Below, in pieces: positions 2,515-18,203 of a stretch of 64,000 nucleotides of DNA. Each line of letters opens with the position of its first letter. Positions within the stretch are counted from its first letter, which is position 1. Source of the stretch: Patescibacteria group bacterium (lineage in GTDB: Bacteria > Patescibacteriota > Patescibacteriia > Patescibacteriales > JAQTRU01). Below the pieces are notes generated by a model, which searched no databases, was not told the DNA's origin, and worked only from the letters and a program-made list of their open reading frames with translations. The DNA lies in assembly GCA_041645555.1 (NCBI GenBank), contig JBAZPX010000001.1:22505-86504 (forward strand), in the 5' to 3' direction. The translations under genes and the position numbers were made by a program.

Positions 2515-2537
2515 TATTTTAAAATAAAATTTTTTAA

Positions 2538-2575
2538 ACAAAAAACACGCGATTAAATTTGCGTGTTTTTTGTTA
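2538..2575. terminator. bidirectional intrinsic terminator
   Basis: Hairpin aaaaaacacgc/gcgtgtttttt (2540-2550 / 2561-2571) with an A-run on one side and a T-run on the other. It sits between the convergent plus-strand CDS and the minus-strand 16S transcript. Confidence 0.65.
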
Positions 2576-2599
2576 TTTTATTTATTTTAGTGATTTCAA

Positions 2600-2617
2600 T
2601 GCTAGCAGGCGCCAATT
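2600..2617 (-). other. 3' strand of the 16S precursor processing stem
   Basis: 18 nt perfectly complementary to 4368-4385 on the other side of the 16S gene. This is the classic RNase III-type stem flanking rRNA. Confidence 0.7.
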
Positions 2618-2670
2618 CTCCAATTGCCTTTTACAGCAAAAGGATCGACTTTTCGATTTTCACCGAATAT

Positions 2671-2734
2671 CTCCCTAGAAAGGAGGCCCGCCTCGCTGAG
2701 ACAAGCTCAGCTTGGCGAGGCGGGTGATCCATCC
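2671..2734 (-). repeat. second copy of the 16S 3' terminus (anti-SD included), split by a 38-nt GC-rich palindrome
   Basis: 2671-2686 (ctccctagaaaggagg) plus 2725-2734 (tgatccatcc) together equal the contiguous 26 nt at 2781-2806. The insert at 2687-2724 is cccgcctcgc...gcgaggcggg. Confidence 0.8.
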
Positions 2735-2787
2735 AAATGGACTTCTCATCCGCGGGCTTCAATTCTAATGAGATTTTTTTCTCCCTA

Positions 2788-4277
<1,490 letters not shown>

Positions 4278-4367
4278 TTTTTTACTTGGTTTACTATCCA
4301 AGAGAAATTTTTTTACAAAAATTTCTGATATTTGAGCTCCCGGTAAAACCGGGTAAAAATTATCCGA

Positions 4368-4385
4368 AATTGGCGCCTGCTAGCA
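4368..4385 (-). other. 5' strand of the 16S precursor processing stem
   Basis: Perfect 18-nt complement of 2600-2617. Confidence 0.7.
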
Positions 4386-4557
4386 CCAAAATTTTAATTT
4401 GAATTGTTCACCAAAATTTAATAGATTGTTAAAGGGCTTTCTTTCCCGGGAAATTATTCCCGAGTAAGCAGCAAAAAAACAGGAATATTAAGCTTTTATT
4501 AATATTACTGTTTCTTCACCTCCTCTTTATTATTCTTTTGTATTTTTTCGTATCTTT

Positions 4558-4586
4558 ATATTAAATCATTTCCAGATTAATGTCAA
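4558..4586 (-). promoter_or_regulatory. candidate sigma70-type promoter for the 16S transcript
   Basis: The minus strand reads TTGACA (4586-4581), a 17-nt spacer, then TAATAT (4563-4558), about 280 nt upstream of the mature 16S 5' end. Confidence 0.3.
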
Positions 4587-4705
4587 GGGATCTTATGAAC
4601 ATTATATCAACAGCCGGTTAAGTAGGTAAAAAATTTTAAATTTTACCGCTTTTTTAAGATAAATAATTTAATCCCAGCCGAACAAAATTATTGCCCGTTT
4701 TGAGT

Positions 4706-4716: not shown

Positions 4717-4745
4717 TTGACGCAAGGGCTTTTCCGTGATACAGT
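4717..4745 (+). promoter_or_regulatory. candidate promoter for the beta-helix gene
   Basis: TTGACG (4717-4722), a 17-nt spacer, then TACAGT (4740-4745). This would leave a leader of over 200 nt before the ATG at 4972. Confidence 0.25.
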
Positions 4746-4971
4746 GAAAAATGCTCTTTTACAATTCCTGCACGGAGGCTTTGAAATCAACGCCGCCTTT
4801 GCAGGCTATATAGAAACATATAAAATCCCACACTATCCTTACGTTAGTTGGCTCACTCTAAAGAGGGAGGACATATTGGCTTTGAGGAAATCGGTGCATT
4901 ATGGAAGAAGTCGGATAAGCACGGTAAGGTTACGCTATTTCACTACTTCACTCACCTGGAAGGAGTATATC

Positions 4972-7140
4972 ATGAAGGGGAAACTGTTTTTCAGCGTCAT
5001 CGCGCTGATGTTAGCGATGGCAGTCGTCGGTAATGTCTATGGCGCAGCCCTGCAGGTTGGGGTTGGTCAGACATATACGATGATTCAGCCTGCTATTGAT
5101 GCTGCCAGTCCTGGCGACATCGTCAATGTGGAGGGGGGGAATTACACCGAACAAATCACGATAACCAAATCTCTGAGTCTGATTGGTGCGGGTGAAACAA
5201 CGACAACCATCCTCGCTCCGGCCGTGCGAACCGGCTCGGTGGTGCACAATGGAACCACCCACGACTACCTCCTGGCTGCCTATGCCACTGGCGGTACGAT
5301 TGATGTGCGCGTCCAGGGCTTTACGCTCGACGTAAACAGTAAGAACAAGACGCCAGGCACAGCGCAGATTGACGGAGTGTTCTTCCGCGATGTCAACGGC
5401 GCGAATGCCGGTCTTTTTTCCAGCACGATTCATAATTTCGCCGCTGCGCCGGCCTATGAAGGTTTCGGGGTGGTTGTGTATGGCGGTTCTCTTTTAACTT
5501 TGAATGACAATGATGTCAGCGATTACACGCGGGACGGCATCAGTATCAATCGTAACGGCGGCTCGGGATCAAATCCAAACGTGACGATCAGCGGGAACGC
5601 TGTCACGGGTACAGTCTCGGCGGCCTTGAATGGCATCAGTATTTCCACTGTTACCGCAGGCGCCGTGACGGGTAATACCGTCACCGGAAATTCCGGCAAC
5701 ATTCCAATGACCTGGGCGAGCGGAGGCATTGTTATTTGGACGTCTACCGGGGTACCTATCACCGGCAACCATGTCGACGGCAATTTCTACGGCATTGACC
5801 TCTACAATGGCAGCCATGATATAACAATCTCCGGAAACGAACTGACGGGCAACATCAAACGCGGCATCAGCTTGGGCGGTAATAGCCTGGGAACCAGTGT
5901 CGGTACGGATAATAGTACCGTGTCGGGCAATACGATTATCGGGCCTGTCGGCGGAACCGATGACGTGGCTATTGGCGTGGCCAATGGCTCCACGGGCAAT
6001 ATGATCGGCGGTCCAAACCCGGCAGACGGAAACACTATTACGATGGCCACGGCCGGCACCGGGAATCTCTATGCGATTCATATGGATGGAAGCATGGGCG
6101 CCGGTAGCAACACCATAAAGAACAATACTATTATCGGCGGCAAGCGCGCTGTGCAGTTTGACGGACCTCCGGGCGTCACCGGTCTCACCACCGTGGCGAA
6201 CAACGCAATTTCCAGCCAAGAATTCGGCGGCATTACGGCTTACAATACCGGCGACCTGGCCATCACCAACAACACCTTAACCAACGCGGTTCGTCCGATT
6301 GAGTTTTTTGGGCCTCGCGACGTAACGATTTCCGGCAATACTATCAACGGCTCCACTTTTGACGCCATAAATGCCGGAAGCTATACCGGAACAGTCATAG
6401 TTTCGGATAAAAACAAATTTATCAGTTTGCCGGCAGGTCCTCTCGCTCTCAATAATCAAGGCGCGGCAACGATCAACGCCGCCAACAACTACTGGGGTTC
6501 GGCTGCTAGTCCCGACGCTCTTGTGAGCGGTACCGTGGATTTCGATCCATGGTATATCGACGGGGAGATGCTTAATCTCTCCGATGCCGTGGCTGACGCA
6601 GATGATATCGCTGTTGCAACGGCGGACCCTCCTCCATTTGTGAATGTGGCCGCCAGCGTAACGGTTGATATTGTCGGCGCGGTTGGCACTGGCACAATCG
6701 TGACGTCCGCTTATTCGGCTGACCCTGTAACATCCACAACATTTTCGACCGCGCTTCCGGGAAAAGCAGCGTTGAAGTATGTTGACGTGCAGGTAACGGG
6801 CCTCACTGGCGGAACCGCCGTGATTACTGTTGATTACAGTGACGCGGAAGTGTCCGCAAAGGGCCTTGATGAAAATACGTTAATCCTGTACGTATGGTAT
6901 GGTGGCGCTTGGAATGCTCCAGTCTCTAGCCCAGGCAGAGATGTTATTAACAATAAAGTCTGGGGAACGTTCAACGTGACCGATTTAACCGGAGCGCCTG
7001 CTGCGCCGGGAGGTAGTCCTCCTCTTTCTGCTGCTATACCTACGTTGAATGAATGGGGACTCATTATCTTTGGTTCCCTAATCCTCGTAATAGCTGTAAG
7101 GTCCATAAGGAGGAAACAGCGTTTTGTAAATATTGCATAA
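4972..7140 (+). CDS. secreted right-handed parallel beta-helix repeat protein with IPTL-CTERM-like C-terminal sorting tail
   Basis: GGAAGGAG RBS at 4958-4965, then ATG 4972 and signal peptide MKGKLFFSVIALMLAMAVVGNVYGA. There are many (I/V)xGN...N beta-helix turns. The C-terminus is IPTLNEWGLIIFGSLILVIAVRSIRRKQR. The track ORF start at 4717 is rejected as a read-through of the leader. Confidence 0.8.
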   Translation: MKGKLFFSVIALMLAMAVVGNVYGAALQVGVGQTYTMIQPAIDAASPGDIVNVEGGNYTEQITITKSLSLIGAGETTTTILAPAVRTGSVVHNGTTHDYLLAAYATGGTIDVRVQGFTLDVNSKNKTPGTAQIDGVFFRDVNGANAGLFSSTIHNFAAAPAYEGFGVVVYGGSLLTLNDNDVSDYTRDGISINRNGGSGSNPNVTISGNAVTGTVSAALNGISISTVTAGAVTGNTVTGNSGNIPMTWASGGIVIWTSTGVPITGNHVDGNFYGIDLYNGSHDITISGNELTGNIKRGISLGGNSLGTSVGTDNSTVSGNTIIGPVGGTDDVAIGVANGSTGNMIGGPNPADGNTITMATAGTGNLYAIHMDGSMGAGSNTIKNNTIIGGKRAVQFDGPPGVTGLTTVANNAISSQEFGGITAYNTGDLAITNNTLTNAVRPIEFFGPRDVTISGNTINGSTFDAINAGSYTGTVIVSDKNKFISLPAGPLALNNQGAATINAANNYWGSAASPDALVSGTVDFDPWYIDGEMLNLSDAVADADDIAVATADPPPFVNVAASVTVDIVGAVGTGTIVTSAYSADPVTSTTFSTALPGKAALKYVDVQVTGLTGGTAVITVDYSDAEVSAKGLDENTLILYVWYGGAWNAPVSSPGRDVINNKVWGTFNVTDLTGAPAAPGGSPPLSAAIPTLNEWGLIIFGSLILVIAVRSIRRKQRFVNIA

Positions 7141-13765: not shown

Positions 13766-14719
13766 ATGGAACCCAGAGAGATTAAAACTGAAAAAAATGC
13801 GGCGGAGGCAATTGTGGAGACAATTGCTTTTTTTGACTTATTCTCTTACCCCCTAACCGCTTTTGAGATTTGGAAATATATAAATATAAAATCCGAACTG
13901 GGCGAAGTTTTGGAAGTTTTAGAAAAACCCGCCTCTGTCCCGCTCGGCGGGACTACGGCGGGCAAGGACGGATTTTATTTTTTAGCTGGCCGGGCAGAGA
14001 TTATGAGGGAAAGAATGGCGAGATATAATTATACGGATAAAAAATTTAATCGGGCAATTTTACTCTCCAGAATTTTTAAATTTATTCCCTGGATAAAAAT
14101 GGTCGCGGTTGGGAATATCATCGGAGCGCATAACTTAAAAAAAGAAAGCGATATAGATCTGTTTATTATCACGGAGAAAAACCGGATTTGGCTAACCAGA
14201 TTTTTTTGCGTGCTAATAACAAAAACATTGGGGTTGCGTCCGAAACCCGAAGAAGCCAGGGATAAAATTTGCTTAAGTTTTTTTATTAGCGAGGAAGCGA
14301 TGAATTTAGAAAAGTTGATGCTGGCCGGCGGGCGAGATACATATTTTATTTATTGGCTGGCGGGGTTAGTACCGATTTATGACAAGGACGATATTTATAA
14401 TAAGTTTATAAAAGCCAACGTCTGGCTTAAAAATTATTTGCCTAATTGGATGGCCGGAGAAGTTAATTACCGGCGGGATGCCGGAAAAAGTTTTTCCCGG
14501 TTTTACCGCGATGTGGTTGATATGTTTTTCGGCGGGCTGGAAAGAAGAATTAAAGAAATTCAATTGGAAATAATGCCGAGACAAATAAAAGACATTATGA
14601 ATATGGACAGCCGGGTGGTGGTTGATGACAGAACAATAAAACTTCATGTTAATGACAGGAGAGAGGAATACGAAAATAAATTCAGAATTAAGAATAAAGA
14701 ATTAAGAATTAATTTATGA
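13766..14719 (+). CDS. hypothetical protein, possible Pol-beta-superfamily nucleotidyltransferase fold
   Basis: VGNIIGAHNLKKESDIDLFII resembles the G[GS]x9-13DhDh NTase motif. The 3' end carries a heptamer tract (agaatta/agaataa x4 at 14684-14711). Confidence 0.4.
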   Translation: MEPREIKTEKNAAEAIVETIAFFDLFSYPLTAFEIWKYINIKSELGEVLEVLEKPASVPLGGTTAGKDGFYFLAGRAEIMRERMARYNYTDKKFNRAILLSRIFKFIPWIKMVAVGNIIGAHNLKKESDIDLFIITEKNRIWLTRFFCVLITKTLGLRPKPEEARDKICLSFFISEEAMNLEKLMLAGGRDTYFIYWLAGLVPIYDKDDIYNKFIKANVWLKNYLPNWMAGEVNYRRDAGKSFSRFYRDVVDMFFGGLERRIKEIQLEIMPRQIKDIMNMDSRVVVDDRTIKLHVNDRREEYENKFRIKNKELRINL

Positions 14720-18024: not shown

Positions 18025-18142
18025 ATTTAGCAAGATGAAATATTAGAGGAGAGGCCTCTGGCGTTTCTCTTTTTTTATTTGCTGATTTAATGATTATTAG
18101 CTATGATTATAGTATGGACCCGCCTCCGTCCCGCAATTTTGC

Positions 18143-18203
18143 GGGGCTTCGGCGAGGAAAGCCCGCCTTCGTTTTTCAACTTAATTTAGGGGCTTCGGCG
18201 AGG
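18143..18203. repeat. direct repeat of ggggcttcggcgagg (two copies 46 bp apart) within a cluster of GC-rich palindromes
   Basis: Copies at 18143-18157 and 18189-18203, with adjacent hairpin ccgcaattttgcgg. Confidence 0.75.

Follow-up and report, generated by a model that had tools for sequence, protein, structure and literature searches.

How does an rRNA gene come to carry a second, broken copy of its own 3' end in its trailer, and does that copy do anything for the cell? The question is raised by a 64-kb piece of DNA (the window, meaning the whole stretch that was analysed) from a metagenomic contig of Patescibacteria (candidate phyla radiation, CPR; Parcubacteria-like), which is also present as contig k141_110349 of ERZ27249422. 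The TrpRS encoded there shows 100% identity to a protein of an NCBI metagenome-assembled genome entered as 'Patescibacteria group bacterium'. The window contains a single, unlinked 16S rRNA gene, and no 23S or 5S rRNA gene is found in its 64 kb. The original prediction, made from the sequence of the window, was that the 16S terminus, including the anti-Shine-Dalgarno (anti-SD) sequence, recurs in the 16S trailer and is split there by a palindrome. We find that the trailer carries a 110-nt block that is a real insertion, with a defined structure and distribution and without a counterpart in many relatives. With a probability of roughly 0.55, we read this block as a palindromic duplication-insertion of the fold-back or template-switch type, which lies in a discarded spacer and has been spread by recombination. 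The coordinates of all features are collected in Table 1.

The duplicated unit is 28 nt long and reads TGGATGGATCACCTCCTTTCTAGGGAGA in RNA sense. It consists of 19 nt of the 16S end and 9 nt of the trailer, and so crosses the mature-end junction. A repeat search recovers the second copy in two exact pieces, 2670-2686 matching 2780-2796 (17 nt, 100%) and 2723-2735 matching 2795-2807 (13 nt, 100%). The duplication in two exact pieces is therefore as predicted, while its length is 28 nt and not 26 nt. As a contiguous 28-mer, the unit occurs once in the window, with 0 copies expected in shuffles. Read in RNA sense, helix 45 is followed by TGGATGGATCACCTCCTTTCTAGGGAGA (R1, 2807-2780), AAAAAATCTCATTAGAATTGAAGCCCGCGGATGAGAAGTCCATT (the spacer S, 2779-2736), TGGATGGATCAC (R2a), CCCGCCTCGCCAAGCTGAGCTTGTCTCAGCGAGGCGGG (the palindrome P, 38 nt), CTCCTTTCTAGGGAGA (R2b, to 2670) and then TATTCGGTGAAAATCG.... 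Copy 1 follows helix 45 and the 16S body without a break, and the small-subunit (SSU) rRNA model aligns through position 1533, ending at 2789. Copy 2 is preceded by the spacer S instead of helix 45 and the 16S body, and is split by P as well. R2a and R2b overlap by 2 nt (GG on the plus strand), the last 2 nt of R2a being common to P and R2b, and the point at which P was inserted is accordingly uncertain by 2 nt. The split itself is real, but the position given for it, exactly between AGGAGG and TGATCC, is only one among three equivalent placements. P alone folds at -25.1 kcal/mol and is the most stable 44-nt hairpin across the window. The module formed by S, R2a, P and R2b lies outside the mature rRNA helices and begins 10 nt past the modelled mature 3' end; an rRNA intervening sequence was rejected on this basis.

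Regions containing rRNA are prone to chimeras in assembly. The arrangement, however, is base-for-base identical in 12 assemblies that differ in sample, assembler, pipeline and k-mer size (ERZ27249422, ERZ27247322, Logan SRR8449827, JGI Ga0100394, JGI 3300025805, JGI 3300008008, ERZ909571 and five with numbers of the form ERZ272933xx). In each of them, the module is joined to lineage-specific single-nucleotide polymorphisms (SNPs) of the trailer only 45-55 nt away. The concordance of these independent assemblies supports the duplicated arrangement and leads us to reject an artefact or chimera, the probability of which we consider negligible. A mosaic-looking gene does occur among the related loci (designated here by L numbers). 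In L044, the 16S exon upstream of an intron at position 1400 is 91% identical to the window, whereas the 3' exon, the module and the trailer are 97-100% identical. Either the rRNA gene of L044 is a mosaic, or the assembly has fused two sequences through the mobile intron that they share.

Relatives were fetched through neighbouring proteins (synteny via trpS and via a 135-aa open reading frame, ORF) and by one scan of a JGI metagenome for the junction between R2b and the trailer. The L004 type, the L014 type and about 10 other lineages of the family have a single 16S end, GGATGGATCACCTCCTTTCTAGGGAG, to which ATATTCGGTG(A)AAATCGAAA... is joined without interruption. The 16S identity to the window is 97.5% for the L004 type and 99.3-99.6% for the L014 type. 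In about a dozen lineages, the single 16S end is directly followed by the trailer ATATTCGGTGAAAATCGAAA..., which in the window comes after copy 2; the R2b-trailer junction, GGGAGA|TATTCGG, is the 16S-trailer junction of the whole family. The comparison of trailers that had been proposed as a check thus shows that the ancestral trailer adjoins the split copy. Of the two ancestral junctions, the split copy has retained the one with the trailer, and the intact copy the one with the gene body. Since about a dozen relatives are without the block, the window carries a 110-nt insertion between ...CUAGGGAGA and UAUUCGG..., and not an ancestral feature.

One of the earlier proposals was that a palindrome had invaded the original 3' end, which was then rescued by a duplication. 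Intermediates would carry either the duplication without P or P in a single copy, and neither was found in the pattern scan of the JGI metagenome or by the two synteny routes. A two-step history is unnecessary; in formal terms, a single 110-nt block accounts for the difference between the window and its relatives.

The module is found in two backgrounds only, the species of the window and strains of the L020 / P0123 type. The trpS gene and the small ORF of the L020 / P0123 type have about 85% DNA identity to the window and about 95% to the module-free L014 type. L020 thus combines genes that are 95% identical to the L014 type with a trailer of the window type. Between the two backgrounds, there are 0 differences in the 110 nt of the module and 2 in the adjacent trailer, while the terminator region shows several differences and a 12-nt indel. 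Invariance of the module across backgrounds of about 85% identity calls for recent transfer or for purifying selection, between which these data do not discriminate. A single 1-kb contig, L053, encodes an identical small-ORF protein and has a nearly identical trailer, but is without the module. Its junction reads GGGAGA-AAA-TTCGG, as against GGGAGA-TA-TTCGG in the family consensus, and its small ORF and trailer of the P0123 type are joined to a 16S 3' part of a different type. In L053, either the site was never occupied or the hairpin was deleted as a whole. In both cases, L053 indicates that the module is dispensable in that background and that rRNA segments recombine at this spot. Together with the absence of the module from all other sampled lineages, it also indicates that the module is not generally required. 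The mismatch between genes and trailer in L020 and the mixed make-up of L053 both point to recombination in the locus. In one strain of the P0123 type (L045, 527-2121), an insertion sequence (IS) with a DDE_Tnp_1 transposase lies directly after the shared terminator and replaces the trailer side of the 16S gene.

The spacer S gives an indication of how the block may have arisen. S has no significant similarity to the upstream 16S sequence, the trailer or the leader in either orientation. A simple tandem duplication of adjacent sequence was therefore rejected. Instead, the 22 nt of S after the A-run match the reverse complement of R2b and the edge of P at 17 of 22 positions, a value reached by 17 of 5000 shuffles (p about 0.003). 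The remainder of S resembles CCCGC-GGA, a collapsed form of P, followed by a weak inverted R2a. The layout of the locus can be described as direct - inverted - direct, with palindromic junctions GGGAGA-A6-TCTC and TCCA-TT-TGGA. As judged from the sequence, the support for this layout is moderate, not strong. In fact, 20 of 1000 shuffles of S reach the fold energy of the module.

The block was probably made by fold-back or template-switch copying during replication or double-strand break repair at the end of the rRNA gene. It comprises an A-run with a roughly inverted terminus, then a direct copy of the terminus, and a GC-rich hairpin nested in the middle of that copy. The nested hairpin would be one of the GC-rich palindromes that come and go often in this clade. 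The block then probably passed between close relatives by homologous recombination, the rRNA locus being nearly invariant. In the RNA, the block would form part of the pre-16S transcript, as a domain of its own between the leader-trailer helix and the mature end, and would be lost when the trailer is discarded. Both elements of this proposal have precedents, since template switching makes hairpins of RNA genes in one step (PMC8794818) and fold-back template switching yields direct-inverted-direct triplications (PMC4689423).

A possible trigger is suggested by introns in the relatives. An intron that encodes a LAGLIDADG protein and is group II-like is inserted at GTACTCAC|CGCCCGTC, near 16S position 1400, in the L004, L014 and L044 types, and two intron types occur. 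This insertion site corresponds to 16IS9 (PMC11270868). The intron displaced the Rfam coordinates of the 16S end in the loci that bear it, while the 16S gene of the window is without it (site 2919/2920). Homing-endonuclease introns at this position make break-induced repair near gene ends a plausible, if speculative, trigger.

The predicted fold of the module bears on a second explanation, that of a functional element in the precursor. Together with the following U (2669-2779, 111 nt), the module is predicted to fold at -49.0 kcal/mol (z -4.53), and 0 of 200 dinucleotide shuffles are as stable. The predicted structure is a three-way junction: S pairs through its 5' part with R2b and through its 3' part with R2a, and P forms the third arm. 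Both the inverted copy in S and the single self-contained fold of spacer, split copy and palindrome had been overlooked before. In the cofold of leader and trailer, the energy is -151.2 kcal/mol with the module and -100.6 kcal/mol without it, and every other predicted pair is unchanged. The module therefore behaves as an independent domain in the cofold, and the processing helix of leader and trailer, 26 bp in this prediction, is intact after its deletion. Both copies of the terminus lie inside the processing stem, as had been proposed, but the stem is longer (25 nt at 88%, 2593-2617 / 4368-4392) than the 18 bp given for it. Copy 1, which ends where the SSU model does, probably supplies the mature 16S 3' end, and the block is probably removed with the trailer. 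Besides the 16S end, a permissive Rfam search of 2520-2830 for an intron, a ribozyme or an Rfam family gave only chance-level matches.

As a functional element, the module would be a mimic of the terminus, held in a three-way junction, that aids or controls maturation of the 16S 3' end. It might provide a double-stranded cleavage site near the mature end, block a 3' exonuclease, or transiently bind a factor that recognises GAUCACCUCC or CCUUUCU|AGGGAG. Consistent with such a role, the repeat extends beyond the anti-SD alone and crosses the mature-end junction, and the module is very stable, modular, and invariant in the 12 assemblies and in two backgrounds with about 85% flanking identity. However, it is missing in about a dozen lineages and in L053 despite the identical neighbouring protein. 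Its invariance leaves no covariation to assess, and recombination in an rRNA locus of 97-99.6% identity explains the invariance equally well. Furthermore, the fold shows no strand asymmetry. The antisense strand folds at -53.8 kcal/mol against -49.0 kcal/mol for the sense strand, which we judge to be equally good. This argues for a palindrome at the DNA level rather than a structure tuned on the transcribed strand, and an RNA-strand-specific structure was rejected for this reason. We regard a function in 16S maturation as unlikely, although it deserves to be kept in mind.

The original prediction also assigned P to the same palindrome style as other GC-rich palindromes in the window. As a mutational class, this assignment is reasonable, since palindromes are frequently gained and lost in the clade. 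The trpS genes of the L014 and L020 types contain an 18-nt GC-rich palindrome, CCTGCCCGCGCAGGCAGG, as an in-frame insertion of six codons that the window does not have (at about 1833), and several GC-rich palindrome indels in intergenic DNA distinguish close relatives. P itself, however, has no second copy. Neither P nor S nor the module recurs elsewhere in the window or elsewhere in 55 related loci (about 0.4 Mb), as searched by BLAST-short and by stem pattern. In the window, CCCGCCTCGC has 4 matches against 3.2 expected, and across all loci the stem pattern occurs at this site only; P was rejected as a dispersed repeat accordingly. In the window itself, nested GC-rich hairpins that start with CCCGCCTC, the 8-mer that also starts P, are found at 13928-13963, in frame (12 codons) inside the ORF at 13766-14719, and at 18119-18158, in an intergenic spacer.

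Other large hairpins have been inserted around the 16S genes of the relatives. The trailer of the L014 type (L014, 5370-5600) has its own insertion of about 200 nt, which consists of direct and inverted TCGGAT-rich repeats starting from the conserved ATATTCGG. The same spot has here undergone a second hairpin expansion, independent of the first. Between L004 and L005, whose TrpRS sequences are identical, the leader hairpin CCCGGTTTTACCGGG (window equivalent about 4343) differs by a highly structured insertion of 112 nt (-54 kcal/mol), and there is a further difference, an insertion near 16S position ~65. Hairpin insertions are thus polymorphic within populations. The large hairpins in the L014-type trailer and the L004 leader indicate that the spacer tolerates self-contained hairpins.

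Could the module instead be a selfish or mobile unit that lands in rRNA termini, brings a replacement terminus with it, and spreads by recombination or by co-conversion during intron homing? The module is identical in divergent backgrounds, and its presence varies among contigs with the same small-ORF protein and near-identical trailers. L053 is without the whole 111-nt unit, and its junction differs from the product expected of recombination between R1 and R2. The homing-endonuclease introns of the relatives lie only about 140 nt away. Against this, neither the 64 kb nor the roughly 0.4 Mb of related loci contain a further copy of S, P or the module, there are neither terminal inverted repeats nor a short target duplication, no recombinase is encoded nearby, and the architecture is unmatched in the genome-wide scan described below. 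Two known types of element were rejected in the same way. A dispersed palindromic repeat or miniature inverted-repeat transposable element (MITE) does not fit a single copy in the window and the 55 loci, flanked by a 28-nt rRNA terminus in place of terminal inverted repeats with a short target-site duplication. An integrative element with attachment-site (att) duplication does not fit either, because the 44 nt between R1 and R2 leave no room for a recombinase gene. We consider a selfish unit improbable, somewhat more so than a function in maturation.

Both the functional and the selfish explanation gain from a mirror-image module at the other end of the gene in a sister lineage. In L027 (about 6890-7000, minus strand) and L037, which are of the L014 type, the ancestral leader is followed by AGAGAGTTTGA, a GC-rich hairpin CCCCGCCCCTCACGAGGAGCGGGG (in place of TCCTGGCTCAGGA), TGAACGCTGGCG, a spacer, and then the intact AGAGAGTTTGATCCTGGCTCAG.... 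The spacer holds inverted copies of both halves of the pseudo-terminus. This 97-nt module has a predicted Y-shaped fold of -38.3 kcal/mol (z -6.6), the same logic as at the 3' end, and the Rfam start of 16S in L027 and L037 is the inner copy. In both modules, the outer copy, beside the ancestral flank, is split by the GC hairpin, and the inner copy is intact. A GC hairpin on the outside and a restored terminus on the inside would fit a selfish unit; the 3' and 5' modules have no sequence in common. Only these two modules exist among the loci examined, and the 5' end of the window is plain (equivalent 4278-4300). It is conceivable, but doubtful, that terminus-mimic modules are recurrent and undescribed elements at the 16S ends of Patescibacteria, either selected players in maturation or selfish units that move as blocks. 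With similar reserve, each may be read as a copy of the terminus that is split by a GC hairpin and paired to inverted halves, while an intact terminus is restored beside the gene body.

The presence of a second CCUCC raises the further proposal that copy 2 serves as an alternative functional 3' end, or as a decoy or regulatory anti-SD that titrates Shine-Dalgarno (SD)-like sequences, such as AAAGAGGAGGUGA in the leader (4516-4528). Both copies are part of the transcript enclosed by the processing helix, and the 13-nt SD-like motif of the leader (AAAGAGGAGGTGA, minus strand) is complementary to the 16S 3' tail. It is located about 25-35 nt past the likely transcription start, before an AT-rich hairpin with a U-run (4474-4516). 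Its conservation among lineages is uneven, and it was rejected as a conserved anti-SD partner. The motif is strong (GAGGAGG) only in the window and in L004 and L005, weaker (CAGGAGG; CAGGAGGCA) in L027 and L037, and absent in L030 and more distant lineages. Furthermore, SD motifs precede 4 of 32 ORFs of at least 200 aa, against 2.3 expected, which is background under crude start calls. Copy 2 is cut at GAUCAC|CUCC, and the second CCUCC is fully paired in the predicted fold. Background SD use and a split, fully paired copy make a decoy anti-SD unlikely. As for a new transcript end, P followed by CUCCUUUCU scores as terminator-like, and the inner part of P with CTCCTTTCTA is flagged in the same way by a simple scan. 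Downstream of P, however, come the conserved 3' arm of the processing helix and a much better terminator (2537-2574). A second 3' end or a decoy is therefore very improbable, and the second anti-SD is most likely without a function of its own.

Several observations weigh against a copying event in a discarded spacer and explain why we do not hold this reading more firmly. There are 0 differences in the 110 nt even though the flanking coding DNA is only about 85% identical. R2 matches R1 at 28 of 28 positions and S deviates at about 28% of positions, which is not what one old triplication with subsequent neutral drift predicts. The inverted similarity of S is only moderate (17/22), and shuffled S equals the energy of the module in 2% of cases. 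The source of P is not accounted for, no intermediate state was found, and the evidence from L053 consists of one 1-kb contig. The mirror-image module at the 5' end suggests that the process is not random, and this is not expected of a single slip in copying. The identity of R2 beside an imperfect S, the invariance of the module and its recurrence at the 5' end are the reasons why a maturation element and a selfish unit stand as rivals to the duplication-insertion.

Table 1. Features of the 16S rRNA locus in the window.
Feature	Coordinates	Strand	Basis
16S rRNA gene	2789..4277	-	Rfam RF00177, 1450.7 bits, model positions 1-1533
R1, intact 28-nt copy TGGATGGATCACCTCCTTTCTAGGGAGA, including the anti-SD CCUCC	2780..2807	-	same sequence ends 16S in all relatives
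Whole inserted module (S + R2a + P + R2b), 110 nt	2670..2779	-	self-contained Y-shaped fold (predicted)
Spacer S, 44 nt: A6 run, then TCTCATTAGAATTGAAG-CCCGCGGA-TGAGAAGTCCA-TT	2736..2779	-	pairs with both R2 halves (predicted)
R2a, 5' half of the second copy, TGGATGGATCACC	2723..2735	-	100% identity to 2795-2807
P, 38-nt GC-rich palindrome CCCGCCTCGC...GCGAGGCGGG splitting the second copy	2687..2724	.	perfect 10-bp outer stem
R2b, 3' half of the second copy, CCTCCTTTCTAGGGAGA	2670..2686	-	100% identity to 2780-2796; abuts the ancestral trailer
Ancestral trailer (T)ATTCGGTGAAAATCGAAAAGTCGATCC... and small variable hairpin	2618..2669	-	family-wide conservation; 96% identity to L004
Processing helix, 3' arm	2593..2617	-	inverted repeat with 4368-4392, 25 nt, 88%; kept in relatives
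Processing helix, 5' arm	4368..4392	-	pairs with 2593-2617; kept in relatives
Bidirectional intrinsic terminator	2537..2574	.	16-bp stem, T runs on both sides; common to the 16S unit and the convergent 135-aa ORF
BoxA-like GCCCTTTAACAA in the 16S leader	4426..4437	-	read from the leader sequence; presumed by comparison with the E. coli consensus
Candidate 16S promoters	4558-4586, 4601-4630		promoter scan

Among the relatives, the genes for ClpP, TrpRS, the small ORF, 16S rRNA (opposite strand) and GyrA follow one another in this conserved order. The sequence CUAGGGAGAUAUUCGG after the anti-SD is strictly conserved across the family, as is the anti-SD itself. The conservation of the trailer probably reflects pairing with the leader (GGUGAAAAU / AUUUUUACC). 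On the other side of the 16S gene, between it and a 192-aa ORF and gyrA, a gene for an 807-aa beta-helix (NosD-like) surface-type protein is located at 4717-7140. This gene is missing in the syntenic region of L004.

If the block is a copying scar, it offers a clean natural case of fold-back or template-switch copying that builds large structured RNA domains in one or few steps, and shows how freely the rRNA loci of Patescibacteria take up and exchange such insertions. If the 3' and 5' modules are functional or selfish, they represent a new class of pre-rRNA element. There is also a practical side: a second GGATCACC...CCTCCTT past the gene can mislead the calling of 16S ends, primer design and spacer analysis. 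The earlier statement that no equivalent had been described agrees with a search of 185,579 species-representative genomes for GGATCACCTCCTT-N35-65-GGATCAC-N10-40-CCTCCTT. The search found no equivalent architecture; it gave 3 matches against about 2 expected by chance (a hand estimate), of which two are coincidences of 7 + 7 nt in a Chelatococcus spacer and one is not in rRNA. Terminal duplications are not mentioned in a survey of rRNA insertions in CPR bacteria (PMC11270868).

Several known systems resemble the block in part, and the comparison with them delimits what kind of event it may represent. The architecture calls to mind the integrative elements of tRNA and tmRNA genes. Such elements regenerate the 3' end of the gene and leave a displaced partial copy. 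An intact end beside the gene body and a displaced duplicate further out are likewise seen here, but only 44 nt separate the repeats, an integrase is missing, and the outer repeat is broken up. Short, GC-rich palindromic insertions in AT-rich genomes are known as the GC clusters of yeast mitochondria and the palindromic elements of Rickettsia. The GC hairpins of this clade are similar in that they occur in a genome of about 40% GC, are gained and lost, and are tolerated both in frame and in RNA loci. Unlike with those elements, no conserved multi-copy sequence family emerged here, and P is unique in the available sequence.

Insertions within rRNA itself provide another comparison. Intervening sequences of rRNA are removed by RNase III without religation. 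Like the block, they are extra, self-paired stem-loops of pre-rRNA that are dispensable and patchy in distribution. However, they replace loops of mature helices and fragment the rRNA, whereas the block follows the mature 3' end. Insertions and introns in CPR rRNA genes were reportedly described by Brown et al. in 2015. The survey by Tsurumaki et al. (2024, PMC11270868) concerns the same phylum with its insertion-rich rRNA loci, and the relatives of the window species carry an insertion at position 1400. The insertions covered by that survey are inside mature rRNA, are at least 100 bp long and are mostly introns, and rRNA intervening sequences are mentioned there as well (PMC11270868). In contrast, the block lies outside mature 16S rRNA, has no signature of an intron or ribozyme, and duplicates the end of the gene.

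The closest likenesses are found among the products of template switching. Template-switch hairpins in rRNA (Monttinen & Loytynoja 2022, PMC8794818), with which quasipalindrome template switching in bacteria can be grouped as a similar system, share with the block a reverse complement of adjacent sequence (a putative one in the block), occurrence in one lineage, the instant formation of a stem, and a location in the rRNA unit. At 110 nt, the block is much larger and contains in addition a direct copy and a nested, unrelated GC hairpin. Since its inverted copy is imperfect (17/22), the block does not have the form of a clean one-step template switch. Tandem inversion duplications (TIDs) were reportedly described in Salmonella by Kugelberg et al. 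in 2010. TIDs and the products of origin-dependent inverted-repeat amplification (ODIRA; PMC4689423) differ from the block in scale, as their units are kilobases rather than 28 nt; in the block, the copies are also unequally diverged, and the third carries an extra hairpin. In layout they agree with it, with three copies, the middle one inverted, and palindromic junctions.

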